NCBI GenBank assembly: GCA_900542525.1
Contig: UQNZ01000003.1
Coordinates: 48,440-112,439, forward strand
Source: an uncultured Eggerthella sp.
GTDB taxonomy: Bacteria; Actinomycetota; Coriobacteriia; Coriobacteriales; Eggerthellaceae
DNA: 64,000 nucleotides
Direction: 5' to 3'
Shown: positions 7,756-55,654 of the stretch, piece after piece
How positions within the stretch are numbered: position 1 is the first letter of the stretch
Layout of the letters: every line of letters starts with the position of its first letter
Made by a program: the position numbers and the translations under genes
The notes under the pieces: generated by a model
Database searches by the model: none
Told to the model about the DNA's origin: nothing
The model's input: the letters and a program-made list of their open reading frames with translations, nothing else

Positions 7756-7789
7756 AGATGACAAACTACCCGGTCGTTCGACATCTTTT
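7756..7789. repeat. Left arm of a perfect 34-bp inverted repeat enclosing RNA-like element copy A
   Basis: agatgacaaactacccggtcgttcgacatctttt is the exact reverse complement of 8147-8180. Begins immediately after the galU stop codon. Confidence 0.9.
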
Positions 7790-7800
7790 TTGATTCGACC

Positions 7801-8131
7801 AGTGAAGAGGGTAAGGCACGAGGTTCCCCGCTTCCCTGCTCAAGAACCTGCATTCTGCAGGTTCTTTCGTGCGTCGCTGCTTTGCTCGGGTTTTATTACT
7901 AACGAATTTAGTCGGTAAAGAGTCACCTCGTTGCCTCACCCTCTCCGCTGATCGAGCTAGATGTTTCCGGTCGAGCAAGCAGCTGAGCCCATGGGGTGCT
8001 TGAATTACTCTGAGTCCACATACTTCAATATAAATAGGTTGTCCGAAGGAGCGAAGCGCATGAGCTTGCCTGATTAGGCAAGCGAACAGCGAAAGCGGGT
8101 AATCACAAGTGCCCCATAGGTGTGCTGCTTG
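7801..8131. ncRNA. Unclassified structured-RNA-like repeat element, copy A (inverted relative to copy B)
   Basis: About 90% identical to 53932-54271 in reverse orientation. Substitutions between the copies preserve hairpins (compensatory). No conserved ORF. Confidence 0.55.
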
Positions 8132-8146
8132 CTTGGGATAGATGGG

Positions 8147-8180
8147 AAAAGATGTCGAACGACCGGGTAGTTTGTCATCT
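8147..8180. repeat. Right arm of the perfect 34-bp inverted repeat
   Basis: Exact reverse complement of 7756-7789. Confidence 0.9.
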
Positions 8181-8255
8181 GCTTGCCTAGAGAAGAAAGA
8201 CCCCACAACCAGTATGGTACGGGGTCTTCGATTAATGAGAATCGTAGATGATGAG

Positions 8256-8624
8256 CTAGATCATCGAAATTGGCTGCAATTCGGATTCAGATGCTTCCTG
8301 CTGGCCTTCAGCAATAACAGGAATAAGCTCATCTTCTGCTTCGATCTCCTCGATGAAGGGGCCGAAGAGCGCTTCACCGTTCTGGCTCAGTTCGACCATG
8401 CCGGTAAGGATATCAACATACTGATAGGACTGACGAGCCGCAACACCACGCTTACGCTTGACCTCCATGATGAACAGCTTAGGATGCACCTGCATGAGGA
8501 CTCCTTCGCTCTCAACGATCTTAGAACGACCCATATTCGCGCGAACACGAAGCTTTTGGCCAACAAAATCGCTTAAGGTATCATGAATGCTATCGACGAT
8601 CTGTGCTTGCTTTGCTAAATCCAT
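8256..8624 (-). CDS. veg: Veg family protein (DUF1021)
   Basis: Resembles B. subtilis Veg (KLRVRANMGRSKIVESEGVL...YVDILTG). Sits downstream of rsmA, as in Firmicutes and Actinobacteria. Confidence 0.65.
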   Translation of the reverse strand: MDLAKQAQIVDSIHDTLSDFVGQKLRVRANMGRSKIVESEGVLMQVHPKLFIMEVKRKRGVAARQSYQYVDILTGMVELSQNGEALFGPFIEEIEAEDELIPVIAEGQQEASESELQPISMI

Positions 8625-8768
8625 AAACACTTCCTCAAAAAGGCATAGTAAAACCCGTTTATAATAACACGCTCCCAAATCTAGGTATAACAACTACGTT
8701 TGTTTTTTCACCAACGGCACTTTTTATTCGTTGAGAAACTACTCTTAGATTCAATAGCGAGCGCGCGA

Positions 8769-47922: not shown

Positions 47923-48017
47923 TCAGCATTATGGGCAGTGTCAATAAAATGAAGTTTACCATGTGAAACATACATAACAAAAAAAAGAGCCTGCTCAAGG
48001 CAGGCAGGGAAATTCTA

Positions 48018-48094
48018 TGGCGCGCCCAGTAGGATTCGAACCTACGACCTTTGGATTAGAAGTCCACTGCTCTATCCAGCTGAGCTATGGGCGC
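48018..48094 (-). tRNA. tRNA-Arg (TCT)
   Basis: Acceptor gcgccca/tgggcgc, anticodon loop ctTCTaa, T-loop GGTTCGAATCC, encoded CCA. Confidence 0.75.
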
Positions 48095-48229
48095 AAAACG
48101 TGATTATTATAGCCCAGGAATTCAACCACGTCTGCTGCAAGCCATACAAGCGCGAAAAAACAACGCGAAACAGGAAAAGGCTCCCCGAAGAGAGCCTTTT
48201 CCTGCTGTATTGAAGTAAAGGAAAGTGTC

Positions 48230-49276
48230 TTAATCAATTTCGACGAGCTTGCCGGTCTCCGCTGATTCAAGGATCGCATTGATAACCTTGAGCGTTGCAA
48301 CGCCGTCTTCACCAGTACAGCGTGGCACCGTTTCTCGTCCGAGACAGAGGTCTGCAAAGTGCTCGATCTCCGCCGTCATTGGGTCGTTCTTCTCGACATC
48401 GAAGTGCTCAGTAACGAGCTTCTCTGCCCAGCCGTAATGATCGTCATCGACATAGTGGTAGAAATCCATGTTCGGGAAACCGAATGAACCCTGCGTGCCG
48501 AAGAAGCGCAGGCTATTCTCACCCGGACACCACTGGAAGAAATGGTTTTCCTCAGCAGCCAAGTCATAGTTCCACGGACCTGGCGTACCATCAGAAATGA
48601 AGTAGGTTGCCGTAACACCATTGTCGAATTCGATGACGATAGAAGCAGAATCTTCAACCTCATTACCGCGAATCGTATTGCGTGCAGCAGCATAAACGCG
48701 CGTGACCTTCATGCCGGTGGTGTAGTTCAAATCATCGATATCGTGAATCGCGTTGATGAGGAACGGGCCACCACCCTTTTTCGTGTGCCATTCCACGTCC
48801 CAATAGTTATAGGGTTTCGCGATAGCGTACGTTGCTTGAATGCCAACCAGATCGCCCAACTTGCCCGAAGCGATGAAATCGCGCAAGAACAGATACTTTG
48901 TGGAAGAACGGCGATGATGACCGATGAGCAACGTGGCATCTGCCTCCTTGCACATCGCAATGATCTCATTTGCCTCTTCAACCGTGTTGGCAATGGGCTT
49001 TTCAAGCAAGATATTACGAACACCTGCATCGAGTGTATTACGGGTCGCGCTCACATGCAAGCCATTCGGCAGCGCGATCGCTACTGCATCGAGCGGTACT
49101 TCATTGAGCAGCTCGGTGTAATCCGCATAAAGCGGTACCTCAAGTTCCGCAGCAACATCTTCAGCTTGCTGACCGAAACCAGCAACCGCCACCAAATCGT
49201 AATCGGGATTCTTCTTCGCATCACGTGCGATCTTCGAACCTTGATTCAATCCGAATACGGCAAATCTAATAGCCAT
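48230..49276 (-). CDS. Gfo/Idh/MocA family NAD(P)-dependent oxidoreductase, copy 1
   Basis: N-terminal Rossmann (IRFAVFGLNQGSKIA), EKP motif and the C-terminal alpha/beta domain. Confidence 0.8.
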   Translation of the reverse strand: MAIRFAVFGLNQGSKIARDAKKNPDYDLVAVAGFGQQAEDVAAELEVPLYADYTELLNEVPLDAVAIALPNGLHVSATRNTLDAGVRNILLEKPIANTVEEANEIIAMCKEADATLLIGHHRRSSTKYLFLRDFIASGKLGDLVGIQATYAIAKPYNYWDVEWHTKKGGGPFLINAIHDIDDLNYTTGMKVTRVYAAARNTIRGNEVEDSASIVIEFDNGVTATYFISDGTPGPWNYDLAAEENHFFQWCPGENSLRFFGTQGSFGFPNMDFYHYVDDDHYGWAEKLVTEHFDVEKNDPMTAEIEHFADLCLGRETVPRCTGEDGVATLKVINAILESAETGKLVEID

Positions 49277-49366
49277 GTTATTACCCCTCCATTTTTCCTT
49301 GCATGTGCAAATCTCTTCTGGCGCTTACCCTCGAACACCATGCGCAAGATTAAGAATAGCGCGTTT

Positions 49367-50302
49367 TTAATCGAAGAACTTATCTTGGACAAGTTTTGTA
49401 GGCATTTCCTTACCTACCCAAATATCTTCAGCAATAGCAGCCTGCCACAAAAGCATACCAAGACCATTGATGGTCTTGAGCCCTTTAGCTTCAGCATCCT
49501 CGAGCAACTTCGTCTTGCGTGGCACATAGATGACATCTGCAACAACAAGACCATCCACCAGGAATTCAGCAGGAACTACGCTTTGTCCTTCCAAATCACC
49601 CATGCCAACATTGGTTGCATTGATAAGGAGCACAGATTCAGCGATAGAGGCTTTCATCGCTTCTTTATCATCTATATCGATAAGACGCATAGCGCACCCC
49701 GTCTTATCAGCAATACCTGCGATATGCTCGGCAGCAGCATCAAAAGAATCATTCTTTCGCTTATAGACATCGATCGCAGCAACGCCATCGAGAGCCGCCT
49801 GCGTATAGATCGCCATAGCCGCGCCACCTGCGCCCATTATGGTGATCTTCTTGCCAACAACATCAACACCGTTCTCTTTGACATTACGCATGAAGCCCGC
49901 ACCATCGGTATTATGGCCAATAGCCTTACCGTCTTTGATGGCGACGGTATTAATGGCACCCATCAGCTCAGCAGCTGGAGAGACTTCGTCCAAATAGCGT
50001 GAAACAACTCTCTTATGCGGCATCGTGACGTTATACCCAAGGAAGCCAAGCTCCTTCATGCCGTTCGCAGCGGCTTCAAGTTGTTCGGGTTCGACATTAT
50101 AAGCAAGATAGACGCAATCGACACCGAGCTGCTCAAAGGAAAACGTATGCATAGCTGGTGAAAGCGAGTGCTCCACCGGTGAGCCGATCAGGCAGATTGT
50201 TTTCGTGCAACCAGAGATATTAGGCATAGCAGATCCTTTACTTCTATTGAGATATTGCAATAATGCAGTTCCACAATATCCAATATTCTCTACAAATAGC
50301 AA
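49367..50302 (-). CDS. Shikimate/quinate 5-dehydrogenase-like (AroE family), copy 1
   Basis: AroE substrate-domain motifs (LIGSPVEHSLSPAMH, NVTMPHK) and an NAD(P) Rossmann (GAGGAA). The start is probably at about 50227. Confidence 0.75.
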   Translation of the reverse strand: MLFVENIGYCGTALLQYLNRSKGSAMPNISGCTKTICLIGSPVEHSLSPAMHTFSFEQLGVDCVYLAYNVEPEQLEAAANGMKELGFLGYNVTMPHKRVVSRYLDEVSPAAELMGAINTVAIKDGKAIGHNTDGAGFMRNVKENGVDVVGKKITIMGAGGAAMAIYTQAALDGVAAIDVYKRKNDSFDAAAEHIAGIADKTGCAMRLIDIDDKEAMKASIAESVLLINATNVGMGDLEGQSVVPAEFLVDGLVVADVIYVPRKTKLLEDAEAKGLKTINGLGMLLWQAAIAEDIWVGKEMPTKLVQDKFFD

Positions 50303-50490
50303 GTTGCTTACCTACTATTTTTACCATGAAATAGAGATATGCAATAGAAGTGTTTGCCTTAATGTTGCTTTGTCTTAAGAAAACAATATTCAATTCAAAG
50401 AGTGGCTGAGGCATACCATATGATGCTTTTTACCACGGCGAAAGGCAAATGCCATTGTTCTTTTTTCTAAGTTGCTTTCTTTCCCCCCCA

Positions 50491-51408
50491 TTATTTCTGC
50501 AAAGGACGTACTGTTGCGGTTGGAAAATGGTAGTTTTTCATATAGGTAACAAAATCTGATACAACTCTTGGCTGTGTAATAGATTTATTAGAGATCAGAT
50601 AAACTTTATGAAACTCTCTAGGAGCATCTCGAAGAGGCAGATAAACAACATCGTCAAAAGCCTTGACTAAAAACGAATAGCACAATAATGCAACATCATT
50701 GGTGTCTGAGTTTACTAGAGAAGACAAAGTGATTTCATCGTTATAAGAGTATTCGACATCCAATTCGCATTCTGCCTGCTGAAGCAATTCTTTCATTTCA
50801 TCGTATACAGGTGATTCATCATGGTATGAAATGATATGAAACTCAGCTAAGTCAGCAAGCGATACAACCGATTTTTTCGCAAGAGGATGCTTCTTGTTAA
50901 CCGCAACTGCTAACTCTTGCGCCCAGCAATAGGTACAGTTGTATTTATTCGAAGTTTGAGGCTTTCCTGCGAAGATGACATCCAATTTTCCCGACTCTAG
51001 TCCCTCAAATAAAGAAGGGGTGAAACCTTGAGTTATGTTGATCGTCAGACCAGCTCCACATTCATCTTGAAAGGACTGTATCGCCTGCGACCAATCTTTA
51101 CTCTGCATCGCGTAAAGCGTGCCGAGGTTCAAGGTTCCATTTATCTTCCCTTCATATTCTTCAACAGCTTGAACTCCTTGCTCGATGATTCGCAATCCTC
51201 GAGAAACGTAATCATAGAATTCCTCTCCGCACGGTGTTAGCTCTATCTTATTGTTCGCACGATAAAACAAACGTGTATTTAATTCCTTTTCGAGCGAAGA
51301 AATAGCAGCAGAAAGCGTTGGTTGCGAAACGTAAAGCTCTGAGGCAGCTTTCGTGAAATGCTTCACTTCTGCAAGCTTTTTGAAATATGTTAGATGAGAA
51401 AAATTCAC
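50491..51408 (-). CDS. LysR family transcriptional regulator (AT-rich, likely horizontally acquired)
   Basis: LysR HTH (HFTKAASELYVSQPTLSAAIS) plus a substrate-binding domain. By eye about 40% GC versus above 55% in flanking core genes. Confidence 0.8.
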   Translation of the reverse strand: MNFSHLTYFKKLAEVKHFTKAASELYVSQPTLSAAISSLEKELNTRLFYRANNKIELTPCGEEFYDYVSRGLRIIEQGVQAVEEYEGKINGTLNLGTLYAMQSKDWSQAIQSFQDECGAGLTINITQGFTPSLFEGLESGKLDVIFAGKPQTSNKYNCTYCWAQELAVAVNKKHPLAKKSVVSLADLAEFHIISYHDESPVYDEMKELLQQAECELDVEYSYNDEITLSSLVNSDTNDVALLCYSFLVKAFDDVVYLPLRDAPREFHKVYLISNKSITQPRVVSDFVTYMKNYHFPTATVRPLQK

Positions 51409-51466
51409 TCACTGAGCTTTCTACTTAACATTGATCCGAAAAAGATCTGCCAAATAAAATCATAGC

Positions 51467-52549
51467 TTATTTGATATCAATAACTTTACATGTCTCTGCT
51501 GATTCAAGAATGGCGTTGATAACTTTGAGCGTTGCAATGCCGTCTTCACCAGTGCAACGAGGTTTAGTCTCGCGCCCCGTACACAGATCGGCAAAATGCA
51601 CGAGCTCAGCTGTCATGGGATCATTTCTTTCGATCTCGTAATGTTCGACGATCAGCTCTTCTCCCCAACCATAATGATCATCATCAGCGTAATGATAGAA
51701 GTCCATGTTCGGGAATCCGAGTGAGCCTTTTGTGCCGAAGAAACGAAGACTATTCTCGCCTGGACACCACTTGAAGAAATGATTCTCTTCTGCAGCCAAA
51801 TCGTAGTTCCAAGGACCAGGAGTGCCATCGGAAATGAAATAGGTAGCCGTGATACCGTTTTCGAATTCAATAACGATTGAAGCCGAATCTTCGATCTCGT
51901 TACCACGGATCGCGTTACGCGCTGCCGCATAGACACGGTTAGCCTTCATGCCAGTGGTGTAATTTAGGTCATCGATATCGTGAATCGCGTTGATGAGGAA
52001 CGGGCCACCACCTTTCTTGGTATGCCACTCAACATCATAATAAGCATACGGTTTCGCGATCGCATAAGAAGCCTGCACGCCAACCAGGTCACCAAGCTTG
52101 CCCGATTCGATAAAATCACGCAAGAAAAGATACTTTGACGAGGAACGGCGATGATGACCAATGAGCAGCATCGCACCTGCTTCGTTGCACATATCGATGA
52201 TCTCTTGTGCTTCTTCGACCGTATTAGCAATAGGCTTCTCTAGTAGGATGTTCTTAACCCCCGCATCCAAACATGCACGTGTTGAGCTTACATGAAGCCC
52301 ATTTGGAAGTGCGATCGCAACTGCATCAAGCGGGATCTCTTTTAAAAGATCATTAAAATCTGCATAGAGCGGCACCTCAAGCTCTGCTGAAACGTCTTCA
52401 GCTTGCTGACCAAAACCTGCAACTGCTACCAGGTCGAACTCTTCACTTGCCTTTGCATCTCGAGCTATCTTCGACCCTTGATTGAGCCCAAAAACTGCTA
52501 GCCTGATTGCCATGATAAATCCCTTTCTTTGTACCCCTTGGCAAATCAA
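51467..52549 (-). CDS. Gfo/Idh/MocA family NAD(P)-dependent oxidoreductase, copy 2
   Basis: About 85% amino-acid identity to the 48230-49276 product by eye, with the same motifs. The start is probably MAIRLAVFG at about 52513. Confidence 0.8.
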   Translation of the reverse strand: MICQGVQRKGFIMAIRLAVFGLNQGSKIARDAKASEEFDLVAVAGFGQQAEDVSAELEVPLYADFNDLLKEIPLDAVAIALPNGLHVSSTRACLDAGVKNILLEKPIANTVEEAQEIIDMCNEAGAMLLIGHHRRSSSKYLFLRDFIESGKLGDLVGVQASYAIAKPYAYYDVEWHTKKGGGPFLINAIHDIDDLNYTTGMKANRVYAAARNAIRGNEIEDSASIVIEFENGITATYFISDGTPGPWNYDLAAEENHFFKWCPGENSLRFFGTKGSLGFPNMDFYHYADDDHYGWGEELIVEHYEIERNDPMTAELVHFADLCTGRETKPRCTGEDGIATLKVINAILESAETCKVIDIK

Positions 52550-52616
52550 TGCAAGGGAAGATTCTGAACAGATAAGCCATCGAGGTCCTCTTTGAAGGAA
52601 CCTGTGACCGCAACCC

Positions 52617-53474
52617 TTAGTTGAAGAATTTCTCTTCTATGAGTTTCGTGGGCATCTCCTTACCTACCCAAATGTCTTCAGCGATCGCAGCTTGCCAGAG
52701 AAGCATACCTAGACCCGAAATTGCTTTAAGCCCCTTTGCTTCGGCATCCTGCAAAAGCTTGGTCTTGCGTGGCTCGTAAACCGTATCAGCTACTGCGATA
52801 CCATCGACAAGATAGTCTGGCAAAATAACACTCTGATCAGCTAAATCTCCCATGCCCACGCGTGTTGCATTAACGAATAATGCTGATTCAGCAATAGACT
52901 TCTTGAGTGATTCTTTGTCTTCAAGATCGATAAGGCGCATTCTGCAACCTGTCTTTTCGGCAACTTCCGCCACGCGTTCAGCAGTCACATCAAAGAACTT
53001 ATCCTTGATGTTGTAGATATCGATCGCCTCAACACCATCAAGTGCCGCTTGAGTATATATAGCCGAGCCAGCACCACCTGCGCCGACAATCGTAATCTTC
53101 TTTCCGATAACATCGACTCCGTTTTCTTTGAGATTTCTCATGAAGCCAGCCCCATCCGTATTATGACCAATGGCTTTTCCTTGCTTGATAGCAACCGTAT
53201 TTACAGCGCCCATCAATTCTGCTGCATCGGATAATTCGTCAAGATATTTCGGAATGAATGTTTTATGAGGCATAGTAACGTTATACCCTGCAAACCCCAT
53301 CTTCTTCATGCCTACAGCAGCAGACTCTAGGTCTTGTGGTTCAATATCGTATGCAAGATAAACACAATCTACGCCCAACTCATTGAACGATTGAGTATGC
53401 ATAGCTGGTGATAAAGAATGCTCAACTGGGGAACCGATTAATGCGATAGTTTGTGTATGACCCGATACTTGCAT
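52617..53474 (-). CDS. Shikimate/quinate 5-dehydrogenase-like (AroE family), copy 2
   Basis: High identity to the 49367-50302 product (IALIGSPVEHSLSPAMH, NVTMPHK). Confidence 0.75.
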   Translation of the reverse strand: MQVSGHTQTIALIGSPVEHSLSPAMHTQSFNELGVDCVYLAYDIEPQDLESAAVGMKKMGFAGYNVTMPHKTFIPKYLDELSDAAELMGAVNTVAIKQGKAIGHNTDGAGFMRNLKENGVDVIGKKITIVGAGGAGSAIYTQAALDGVEAIDIYNIKDKFFDVTAERVAEVAEKTGCRMRLIDLEDKESLKKSIAESALFVNATRVGMGDLADQSVILPDYLVDGIAVADTVYEPRKTKLLQDAEAKGLKAISGLGMLLWQAAIAEDIWVGKEMPTKLIEEKFFN

Positions 53475-53684
53475 TGCTCTTCCTTTCAGACGCGTATCAA
53501 ATAGAATACGTTTGGCTCTGTAGCTCTATTCTTTGCGGTTGCTCGGAAAACATCCAATAGTATTAATTACCAATCGGGATAGCATTATTAGAAATACCTA
53601 TATCTCCCTGTCAAAAGCGAATATTCCGCTAATAGAATAGAGAAAAATACATCGCTATTTTTGTTATAATGTTTAACGTCGCGT

Positions 53685-53761
53685 CGGGATGTGGCGCAGT
53701 TTGGTAGCGCGCCTGCTTTGGGAGCAGGATGTCGCAGGTTCGAATCCTGTCATCCCGACCA
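53685..53761 (+). tRNA. tRNA-Pro (TGG)
   Basis: Acceptor cgggatg/catcccg, anticodon loop ttTGGga, T-loop GGTTCGAATCC, encoded CCA. Confidence 0.85.
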
Positions 53762-53769
53762 TTTTTTTT

Positions 53770-53843
53770 GCGGGTGTAGTTCAATGGTAGAACTCCAGCC
53801 TTCCAAGCTGGTCACGCGGGTTCGATTCCCGTCACCCGCTCCA
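53770..53843 (+). tRNA. tRNA-Gly (TCC)
   Basis: Acceptor gcgggtg/cacccgc, anticodon loop ctTCCaa, T-loop GGTTCGATTCC, encoded CCA. Confidence 0.85.
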
Positions 53844-53855
53844 GGAAAACTTTTA

Positions 53856-53884
53856 AGCCAAGGAAACTACCTTGGCTTTTTTAT
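53856..53884 (+). terminator. Rho-independent terminator after tRNA-Gly
   Basis: Hairpin agccaagg-aaacta-ccttggct followed by a TTTTTTATT tract. Confidence 0.7.
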
Positions 53885-53931
53885 TCCAACAAGGTAGAGG
53901 GGATCGAACCAACGTCGTTCATCACCTATGA

Positions 53932-54271
53932 CAAGCAGCACGCCTATGGGGCACTTGTAATTACTCGCTTTCGCTGTTCGCTTGCCTATTCAGGCAAGCT
54001 CATGCGCTTCGCTCCTTCGGACAGCCTATTTATATTGAAGTAAGCGGACTCAGAGTAATTTAAGTACCCTATAGGCTCAGCTGCTTGCTTAGTCGGAAAC
54101 ATCTAGCTCGATCAGCGAAGAGGGTGAGGCAACAAGGTGACTCTTCGCCGGCTAAATTCATTAGTAATAAAACCCGAGAAAAGCAGCGACGCATGAGCGA
54201 ATCAGCGCAAGCTGATTCGCGAACAGGGAAGCGGGTCACCCTCGTGTCTCGCGCTCGGCGCTGATCGAGCC
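53932..54271. ncRNA. Unclassified structured-RNA-like repeat element, copy B
   Basis: About 90% identical to the reverse complement of 7801-8131. Contains GNRA- and UUCG-type hairpins. No ORF is conserved between the copies. Confidence 0.55.
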
Positions 54272-54316
54272 GTGGAAGCTGCACAGTGTCGAGAAAGTAA
54301 TTTGTTATTAAACAAA

Positions 54317-55654
54317 TTACTTTGTCAAAGCAAAATAACGTTTATAGAAAACTGCGATACAGATACCGCAAACGATCAATGAGAGCGCTTCAGCAACGGG
54401 CACCGCACACCATACGCCCGTTATGCCCCACAACGTCGAAAACGAGATCAGACAGATGAGCACGAAAACAAAACTACGCAGCGTTGAGATGAGCGCAGAA
54501 ATACCACCGTTCGAAAGCGCGGTGAACATATTCGAAGTCATAAGACTGAATCCCGCGAACAAAAAGCCTGTTGCGAAGATACGCAAACCCCCACTTGCCA
54601 TAGCGAACAATTCGGTCCCTGGCGCAACGAAGATCCCTACCAAGAATTCATTACCGAACATGCAGGCAGCATAGAGAACGACCGACGCAGCCGCAATGAA
54701 AAAATAAGCATCACGCACCACCCGACGCAGCCGCATGCGATTCTGCGCCCCGAAGTTATAGCTGATGATCGGCGCGATACCGCTTGCGAAACCATATAAC
54801 CCTGCCGTAAAGAGAAACTCAAGATAAAGAATGACCGTGATAGCAGCAACACCTGCCTCCCCTGCAAGACGAAGCATGATGAGGTTATAGGAAAGCGTAA
54901 TGATCATCGCGGCAAGATTCGAGATCATTTCCGATACCCCATTGGTGCAGCTCTTCAAGATCATGCGCGGGCGATTCATGATGCGTCCAAAATGAAGGCT
55001 GTGCTGCTTATTGAAGAAGCAGATGAGTGCGATCACCACAGGAATACAGGTTGCAAGTCCTGTTGCAAGCGCCGCTCCCTTGATCCCCATTCCTACAACC
55101 ACGATAAGAAAATAGTCGCCAACGATATTGAAGATGCCAGAACACAGCGTTGCGATAAGACCGATCTGAGGTTTTCCTGCCGTGATGAAATAGCTTGAGA
55201 ACATGAGTTCGAGCACCCATGGTGCCAAGAATCCAATGATGCAATAGCAGTAATCCTTGCAGTACGGCATCAGTATTGCAGTTGCGCCAAGCGCGCTCAA
55301 GATCGGCTCCATGAAAACGAGGATTGCGATCATGAGAACCAAACCGAGAATCGTGCCGAAGAACACGAGCGTACTCAAGTTATCGAACGCCTGCTGTTCT
55401 TCACCTTCACCGATATTCTTCGCGATAACTGCAGAACCACCAGCGCCGAGCATCACCCCGAAACCCATCACGAGCGAAAAGAGCGGATTGACGATATTGA
55501 GCGCAGAGAGGGCATCGACCGAAACGAACTGCGCAACGAACACCCCGTCGACCATCGTATAGATGGACGTGAAGAGCATCATACATACGGTAGGAAGTGC
55601 GTATTTCAGCAATCCCCAAGCGCCGAAGTTTTGAGCGATCCTATTTTCAACCAT
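54317..55654 (-). CDS. MATE family efflux transporter
   Basis: Twelve predicted transmembrane helices with the MATE duplicated 6-helix organisation. A palindromic terminator lies just downstream (54286-54325). Confidence 0.8.
   Translation of the reverse strand: MVENRIAQNFGAWGLLKYALPTVCMMLFTSIYTMVDGVFVAQFVSVDALSALNIVNPLFSLVMGFGVMLGAGGSAVIAKNIGEGEEQQAFDNLSTLVFFGTILGLVLMIAILVFMEPILSALGATAILMPYCKDYCYCIIGFLAPWVLELMFSSYFITAGKPQIGLIATLCSGIFNIVGDYFLIVVVGMGIKGAALATGLATCIPVVIALICFFNKQHSLHFGRIMNRPRMILKSCTNGVSEMISNLAAMIITLSYNLIMLRLAGEAGVAAITVILYLEFLFTAGLYGFASGIAPIISYNFGAQNRMRLRRVVRDAYFFIAAASVVLYAACMFGNEFLVGIFVAPGTELFAMASGGLRIFATGFLFAGFSLMTSNMFTALSNGGISALISTLRSFVFVLICLISFSTLWGITGVWCAVPVAEALSLIVCGICIAVFYKRYFALTK

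Follow-up and report, generated by a model that had tools for sequence, protein, structure and literature searches.

We analysed a stretch of 64,000 nucleotides (nt) from a contig of an uncultured Eggerthella sp. (UQNZ01000003.1, forward strand, positions 48,440 to 112,439), hereafter the window, and focused on a 340-nt segment, copy B, that lies between a pair of tRNA genes and a convergent gene for a MatE efflux protein (Table 1). The tRNA-Pro and tRNA-Gly genes (53685–53843) are followed by a canonical intrinsic terminator, called by a terminator scanner as a stem at 53855–53878 and then a T-run, which stands between the tRNAs and the segment of interest. The core of copy B starts at 53932, ~48 nt past the terminator, and ends at 54271; beyond it, an AT-rich palindrome reaches into the end of the MatE gene. 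A second segment on the minus strand, copy A (8131–7795), shows 86.4% identity to copy B (53932–54271, plus strand) over 338 nt (E = 1.5e-112). An earlier reading of the letters alone, the sequence-only reading, had placed copy B ~50 nt past the tRNA terminator and had described it as one copy of an RNA-like element, at the edge of an accessory segment. The position, the second copy and the strong structure were confirmed, but the element turned out to be composite.

Dissection with BLAST resolved the supposed 340-nt element into two separable units, d1 and d2, accompanied in copy B by a degenerate half of a third, shorter unit. The d units occur as d1>d2> pairs (~35), as d1 alone (~27) and as d2 alone (~27), also in truncated form and with or without the shorter unit, and at one locus (L008) d2 is reversed from its usual orientation beside d1. 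Altogether the modules form more than 30 architectures across intergenic sites, variable in order, number and orientation. The members of a pair are joined by a conserved 13–17-nt linker, the unit boundaries are sharp and the flanks of different sites are unrelated.

The shorter unit is a dispersed palindrome of ~30 nt (GGTGACAAACTACCCGGTCGTTCGACACC) resembling repetitive extragenic palindromes (REPs). It has ~110 copies in the 1.17 Mb of sequence gathered from the clade, often abutting d units, and forms inverted pairs around them. The unit is a hairpin with A- and T-runs at its sides, and the GTAG inside it (CCGGGTAGTTTGTC) belongs to the apical part and not to the hairpin foot. The full composite, REP>d1>d2><REP with a length of 400–430 nt, was found at at least four unrelated sites including copy A. 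There the dispersed palindrome supplies both arms of a perfect 34-nt inverted repeat, which surrounds copy A and is located outside the stretch common to the two copies. Copy B is a d1>d2> pair that keeps a degenerate half REP on the left only; GGTCGTTCGACACCTATG stands before d1 in three other loci (L008, L004 and L050) as it does here, and we set the left edge of the copy B block at 53915 because the homology to an orthologous site lacking the units (L144, see below) stops there (~53915). One locus contains a tandem array of five to seven half-REP units of 15–19 nt (GGTGWCGAACGNCCA; L068:4383–4514) that resembles an iteron-like protein-binding array. An integron attC array was considered for this locus, where REP units lie between small genes, and rejected as the units are too short and the gene orientations mixed.

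The sequence-only reading had also assigned to copy B an extra cgctgatcgagc tail with a closing helix unlike that of copy A. The cgctgatcgagc segment belongs to the 3′ arm of d2 and is found in all 62 unique d2 copies: the tail CGCTGATCGAGC is the ordinary form of this arm, the internal stem is present in copy B (54106–54141 / 54235–54270), and the helix of copy A is a common wobble variant, CACTGGTCGA.

Table 1. Positions of the repeat modules and of the neighbouring features; coordinates are those of the window unless a locus is named.
Feature	Position	Strand	Evidence	Remark
Degenerate half REP-like unit + linker CGTCGTTCATCACCTATG	53915–53931	+		left edge of copy B block
Copy B unit d1, ~160-nt imperfect long hairpin (CAAGCAGCAC...GCTGCTTGC)	53932–54091	+	BLAST, module census; R1 192.8 bits	
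d1–d2 linker, TTAGTCGGAAACATC-type	54092–54103	+		conserved; found after d1 at many sites
Copy B unit d2, ~167-nt long hairpin	54104–54271	+	R2 173.9 bits; fold, covariation; homology to d1 reverse complement	
Copy A outer REP-like unit	8147–8180	-	perfect 34-nt inverted repeat	left terminal inverted repeat of full composite
Copy A unit d1	7972–8131	-	R1 187.6 bits	
Copy A unit d2	7792–7959	-	R2 190.5 bits	
Copy A outer REP-like unit, inverted	7756–7789	-	inverted-repeat match	right terminal inverted repeat of full composite
Third d1-like subfamily, members	L113:3790–3959, L125:2835–3004, L122:4000–4169, L097:232–392, L137:5876–5994, L103:3878–4029			
tRNA-Pro (tgg)	53685–53761	+	ARAGORN; Rfam tRNA 69.9 bits	context, outside repeat
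tRNA-Gly (tcc)	53770–53843	+	ARAGORN; Rfam tRNA 72.5 bits	context, outside repeat
tRNA-operon intrinsic terminator	53855–53884	+	terminator scanner; 9-bp stem + T-run	
AT-rich palindrome	54291–54326	none		overlaps MatE stop codon; outside the repeat family
MatE efflux gene	54317–55654	-	Pfam PF01554 1.4e-32	convergent with tRNAs; context

The predicted structures are stable and maintained. Copy B was predicted to fold at −154.6 kcal/mol (z = −8.0 in comparison with shuffled sequences) and copy A at −146.1 kcal/mol (z = −7.2), each as two long rod-like domains, and the reverse strand of copy B is nearly as foldable (z = −6.1). The consensus fold of d1 has 43 base pairs, 13 of them with double compensatory changes, and that of d2 has 47, with double compensatory changes at 11; in the apical stem of d2, 23–26 double changes at six pairs have given at least five fully compensated versions. 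Covariance models for d1 (R1) and d2 (R2), with 62 unique copies per unit, found in the window two copies of d1, two of d2 and no others. We also observed a third, divergent d1-like subfamily, scoring 105–138 bits with R1 compared with 180–199 bits for canonical d1, in which the fold is kept with ~10 double compensatory changes (Table 1).

The models cross-match between the units, but on opposite strands. The d1 model matched the reverse complement of d2 with 48 bits in copy B and 26 bits in copy A, and the d2 model matched the reverse complement of both d1 copies with 46–47 bits. Aligning the consensus sequences of the unit centres gave a score of 19 for d1 against the reverse complement of d2 (shuffles 4.3 ± 2.2, maximum 15 in 1,000; z = 6.7) and z = −0.6 for d1 against d2 in forward orientation. 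Similarly, the strand that folds better is the reverse one for d1 in 60 of 62 copies and the forward one for d2 in 61 of 62. As the models cross-match on opposite strands, the centres align reversed and the folding strand flips, d2 is an inverted, diverged paralogue of d1. The "340-nt element" is thus an inverted dimer, which together with the outer REP units makes a nested palindrome. In comparison of d1 and d2, the outer stems are wholly different in sequence yet paired, and the central blocks are conserved. The conserved core of the d unit, CCCGCTTyC.CTGTTCGC / variable hairpin / CTCATGCG..TCGCT.CTT / TATTA / AGAGT, lies inside the long covarying stem. Counts of G·U versus A·C had at one point favoured a single strand for both units; this was dropped as folding of individual copies gave opposite strands for d1 and d2, and the argument for a single RNA was dropped with it, for the same reason.

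By scans for exact motifs, the family has a narrow host range. The d2 motif, scanned against one genome per prokaryotic species, was found in 55 stretches, all from four species-level genomes (12–16 each) labelled Eggerthella sp. CAG:298 or uncultured Eggerthella. Among public metagenome contigs, a 20-mer from the d1 block was found in 85 stretches, nearly all from the human gut, and several contigs contained 3–4 copies; six environmental contigs with the same 20-mer were rejected as relatives and considered chance matches, the reversed motif being a generic Shine–Dalgarno sequence plus ATG gene start. Two motifs had no match among viral contigs, and a distant blastn search of the plasmid collection gave none. 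The MatE protein of the window is found in human-gut assemblies only, and its nearest named relative is that of Anaerotardibacter muris with 76% identity.

By clustering the flanks we distinguished at least 47 sites of the family. The clusters partly merged as the flanks hold fragments of other repeats, and usable comparisons of orthologous sites were left for two groups only, the window with L144 and L105, and L067 with L048. With simple gene calls based on open reading frames (ORFs), 45 of the 47 sites are intergenic, often 0–60 nt from a stop codon, and the two sites "inside" ORFs probably reflect spurious ORFs. Classified by their flanking genes, 14 sites are convergent, 6 divergent and 16 tandem; at the tandem sites the repeat follows the direction of the genes in 7 cases and opposes it in 9. 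A tRNA is found within 300 nt of a single site, copy B itself; the adjacency that the sequence-only reading had taken as informative is thus not a property of the family, and the tRNA neighbour of copy B is incidental. Many metagenome-assembled contigs of the clade start or stop within a d or REP module (L092, L098, L100, L102, L120 and L143). Assemblies from short reads appear to break at the repeats, and the copy numbers per genome are therefore lower bounds.

Comparison of orthologous sites showed that the occupancy of the tRNA–MatE spacer varies. In a second species (L105, 88% nt identity), d2 is at the same place beside MatE, with the locus cut inside d2, and the AT-rich palindrome is conserved. 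In a third species (L144, 89–94% nt identity), the gene order and the tRNA pair are as in the window, and tRNA-Gly, its terminator and ~35 nt more are kept. From there on, as far as the MatE stop codon, the spacer consists of filler of ~300 nt that is unrelated to the window; the palindrome is absent, and no d unit was found in the spacer by BLAST or the covariance models. The sequence-only reading had asked whether the tRNAs are followed directly by MatE where the element is absent: the element is indeed missing at this site, but different filler takes its place. Since its presence varies among the relatives, the segment cannot be a terminator or attenuator conserved in all of them. With two species sharing it, the copy B block must be of some age, yet it is not fixed in the spacer. 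In the second group, the sites L067:1422–1806 and L048:1845–2002 have in common the 3′ end of an orthologous gene, a REP and d1 and are unrelated rightward, with d2 in L067 only, and this repeat sits at a rearrangement or recombination breakpoint.

Two further features were seen in the L144 spacer. In the segment orthologous to window 53844–54316 (L144:4839–5223), the 3′ end of tRNA-Gly and its terminator are partially duplicated, reminiscent of an att scar. The spacer also holds a short repeated palindrome of another type (GGGGTCGTGCAATTTGACACAT / ATGTGTCAAATTACACGACCCC), found again in L063:6211–6275 and L106:1526–1622.

We consider it likely that copy B represents a single insertion of a family of hairpin-forming interspersed repeats that is clade-specific, non-coding and modular, and that it is neither an RNA gene linked to tRNAs nor an integrative element. 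The family is best read as a so far undescribed representative of the type of interspersed hairpin repeat to which REPs, bacterial interspersed mosaic elements (BIMEs), BOX elements and REP doublets forming hairpins (REPINs) belong, and our literature searches gave no earlier description of such repeats in Eggerthellaceae. The basic unit d is an imperfect hairpin of ~160 nt, often with a REP-like palindrome of ~30 nt ahead; its subfamilies d1 and d2 commonly stand tail-to-tail as an inverted dimer, and the full form is a nested palindrome. We infer that the d and REP units spread as non-autonomous DNA, slowly and mostly long ago. They may be recognised as folded single strands by a trans-acting enzyme, much like REPs and REPINs with their REP-associated tyrosine transposases (RAYTs) or the palindromes of the insertion sequence (IS) group IS200/IS605 with their HUH enzymes, whose transposition does not duplicate the target. 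Recognition of this kind would account for insertions that lack target duplications, for stems that covary and cores that are conserved, and for a preferred strand specific to each unit. The effect on the host may be only that of stable hairpins co-transcribed at gene 3′ ends, and at this locus the repeat block would simply fill the spacer between the terminator of the tRNA operon and the end of MatE.

Some observations weigh against this interpretation. No direct sign of recent transposition was seen; the d2 of copy B is orthologous in two species and the copies differ by 3–20%. The proliferation may be ancient, and recombination could also have been involved. The change of outer stems that remain paired and the retention of central blocks between d1 and d2 would look alike in a functional structured RNA. 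The host range comes from scans with exact motifs, to which diverged relatives in other genera are invisible. Finally, the 1.17 Mb of partial genomes yielded no HUH/Y1 transposase or other candidate mobiliser: a tblastn search with IS200 TnpA and YafM (RAYT) queries, a weak and incomplete test, gave nothing below E = 0.4, and REP-dense stretches in L068 and L088 contained only PAP2, NlpC/P60 and glyoxalase genes. There is a small chance that the d unit, as a module recognised in its folded form, represents a new class of large hairpin-type non-autonomous mobile elements in Actinomycetota, with REP-like ends and moved by a recombinase, or else a new multi-copy structured RNA.

The likeness of the family to E. 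coli BIMEs and pneumococcal BOX elements is one of organisation, in the sense of "works like", and not of membership; homology is unlikely given the host phylum and the unit sizes. REPs, BIMEs and REPINs are short, dispersed and extragenic imperfect palindromes whose inverted doublets give long hairpins and occur alongside singlets and clusters (PMC3116915). They share with our family the mosaics of motifs, the lack of target-site duplication, the restriction to a clade and the mostly vertical inheritance (PMC3116915). In contrast to REPs, which are 20–40 nt long, the units here are ~160 nt and the doublet 340–430 nt, the host belongs to Coriobacteriia, an actinobacterium, instead of the proteobacteria (Enterobacteria, Pseudomonas), and sequence homology is unlikely. 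In REPIN–RAYT systems a single-copy RAYT (a Y1/HUH transposase, PF01797) is flanked by REPs in the same genome; no RAYT gene was found in the partial genome sequence searched here. The foot of a REP hairpin carries a conserved GTAG-type tetranucleotide, and no clear conserved foot of that type is seen in the REP-like unit of our family.

The pneumococcal BOX, RUP and SPRITE repeats are modular (BOX consists of boxA, boxB and boxC), have strong secondary structure and occur in one species group, and they can mimic structured RNAs or fuse with real ones (PMC3049150). Like the family described here, they are mostly intergenic and gain new insertions slowly (PMC3049150). The modules of BOX are 45–60 nt long and RUP is an IS630-type miniature inverted-repeat transposable element (MITE) with TA duplication; a sequence relation is unlikely to our family, whose two large modules are related to one another as inverted paralogues. 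The ERIC/IRU, Correia (Neisseria) and bcr1-type (Bacillus cereus group) repeats are imperfect palindromes of 100–160 nt that lie in intergenic regions or 3′ UTRs, form long RNA hairpins when co-transcribed and are genus-specific with tens to hundreds of copies. Correia and bcr1 repeats have target duplications, TA and TTTAT, and DDE-type partners, whereas our family shows neither and is a composite of two unit types and a short REP. IS200/IS605 derivatives are palindrome-associated and move by HUH single-strand transposition with recognition of folded hairpins. Our family differs from them in that no TnpA, TnpB or IscB gene and no omega-RNA/HEARO match in Rfam was found, and the left ends showed no conserved target of the tetra- or pentanucleotide type.

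The strong folding (z of −7 to −8), the helices kept by compensatory changes and the central blocks that are conserved between the ancient paralogues while the stems covary would also be expected if the d units, singly or joined in the 340-nt dimer, were genes for a multi-copy structured noncoding RNA (ncRNA) of an undescribed class, transcribed from their own or read-through promoters. The units indeed have no coding potential: no reading frame is open in all copies and the unit lengths differ by non-multiples of three, and a protein-coding reading was rejected as the 146-amino-acid ORF over copy A has no Pfam match and no frame is conserved. Nevertheless, we regard RNA genes as improbable. 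A scan that captures actinobacterial promoters poorly found no sigma-70-like promoter inside or ahead of the two copies, and the d units neither contain a terminator nor are followed by one. The orientation relative to the flanking genes is random (7 versus 9), and the halves of the dimer are inverted and prefer opposite strands, so a single transcript could hold only one of them in its preferred sense; as the tRNA terminator also stands before copy B, the single RNA of the sequence-only reading is not upheld. The units are furthermore found truncated, rearranged and at contig breakpoints, and sister species differ in their presence at the same site. Rfam 15, including the models for OLE, GOLLD, ROOL, HEARO/omega-RNA, raiA and 6S, gave no non-tRNA match at gathering score in the window, and matches to copies A and B at E ≤ 10 were noise only, which speaks against the known large ncRNAs that the sequence-only reading had in mind.

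Equally doubtful in our view is that the units serve the host as regulatory or terminator modules, for example as mRNA-stabilising 3′ hairpins, bidirectional terminators or protein-binding sites, were duplicated and retained for this role, and insulate here the tRNA operon from MatE. Their enrichment at gene 3′ ends, with 14 convergent versus 6 divergent sites and positions often close to stop codons, fits such a role, as do the A- and T-run flanks of the REP-like hairpin and the half-REP array at one site with its resemblance to a protein-binding array. The tRNA operon, however, already has a canonical terminator, which is kept in L144, and that species manages without the units at this site. 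Neither the d units nor the sequence behind them was marked as a terminator by the scanner, and purifying selection against harmful selfish insertions would equally give avoidance of promoters and build-up at 3′ ends. The palindrome that had been described as a terminator shared with MatE does overlap the MatE stop codon and has 16-nt arms with 94% complementarity (fold −15.9 kcal/mol), but the scanner did not call it a typical intrinsic terminator, as it has too few G–C pairs and no T-run.

We find it still less probable that the units belong to the classical MITEs, which derive by deletion from a DDE-type IS and are moved by cut-and-paste through their terminal inverted repeats. They are small, non-coding and dispersed in intergenic DNA, and inverted repeats are found at the ends of d1 (GCAAGCAGC...GCTGCTTGC) and, as REP units of ~30 bp, at the ends of composites. 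Yet no target-site duplication was found at 50 unique d1 flank pairs or at four full composites. No parent IS sharing the d or REP ends was found in the 1.17 Mb of clade sequence, which covers parts of genomes. Moreover, the "inverted repeats" keep their pairing and not their sequence between the subfamilies, unlike in recognition of double-stranded terminal repeats.

The sole IS found has ends unrelated to d1. It is an IS110-family element with 17-bp terminal inverted repeats of its own (L014:247–1937) that interrupts d1 at GAACAG^CGAAAG, and its transposase ORF (388–1545) matches PF02371 (1.6e-18), with PF01548 just under the cut-off. REPs are landing sites for IS621. Elements of the IS110 family target repeat sequences by means of bridge RNAs (PMC11208160). 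The interruption fits this habit and suggests that the d1 family is a natural landing site for an IS110-type element; in a k-mer test of guide and target against d1, the longest exact matches were 7–8 nt, no better than in shuffles.

Very improbable, and largely refuted, is that copy B is the remnant or att end of an integrative element that entered at tRNA-Gly and brought the segment at 48–54 kb: this segment has a GC content of 0.42–0.49 compared with ~0.52 elsewhere in the window, is absent beside MatE in more distant relatives, and the L144 spacer has its att-scar-like duplicate, but the tRNA-Gly 3′ end (CCCGTCACCCGCTCCA) has no second copy in the region (apart from the region, only a different tRNA-Gly at 19978 matches), no Pfam integrase or recombinase domain was seen in the five ORFs scanned between tRNA-Arg (48.0 kb) and the MatE gene, the low-GC genes and copy B lie on opposite sides of the tRNA pair, the units are found at at least 46 other sites with no tRNA nearby, and the scar is located where the units are absent. 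The neighbouring ORFs matched shikimate dehydrogenase, GFO/IDH/MocA, LysR and MatE, and 48542–50002 matched no family. In the more distant relatives (L145, L147 and L146, the last being Anaerotardibacter muris), MatE is directly followed by dUTPase–NrdR–x–LexA–HflX and there are no tRNAs. The atypical composition noted in the sequence-only reading is real, and the neighbourhood is clade-specific in comparison with distant relatives.

The case is a caution for ncRNA discovery: a fold z score near −8, compensatory changes and a tRNA neighbour look like an RNA gene, yet the segment appears to be a copy of an interspersed repeat. Once recognised, d1, d2 and REP can be masked when gut Coriobacteriia are screened for ncRNAs; they also help explain where metagenome-assembled genomes of the clade break, and mark rearrangement breakpoints. 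The nested palindrome (REP > d > inverted d′ < REP) would extend the REPIN idea to much larger units, in an uncultured and little-studied gut lineage. If a cognate enzyme were found, the family would provide a new case for hairpin-directed DNA mobility in Actinomycetota.

A few smaller features of the two copies and their surroundings can be added. The invariant core of d1, CATGCGCTTCGCTCCTTCGG (window 54001–54020 and 8062–8043), contains when reversed a perfect Shine–Dalgarno sequence, AAGGAG, followed by an 8-nt spacer and ATG; the mini-ORF after this ATG has 5–13 codons and is not conserved. Ahead of the copy A composite, a VEG-family gene (8256–8693, minus strand) has a G+C-rich hairpin of its own, GAAGACCCC...GGGGTCTTTC at 8190–8226 (minus strand), which the terminator scanner left uncalled because its loop exceeds 8 nt; the copy A block is thus not needed as the terminator of this gene. 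None of the genes for dUTPase, NrdR, LexA and HflX that neighbour MatE in the Anaerotardibacter-like relatives is found in the window. The low-GC segment (48000–54300) encodes a LysR regulator, a shikimate dehydrogenase, a protein of 486 amino acids with no Pfam match and two GFO/IDH/MocA oxidoreductases, whose genes (48230–49276 and 51467–52549) are paralogous with 77% nt identity.

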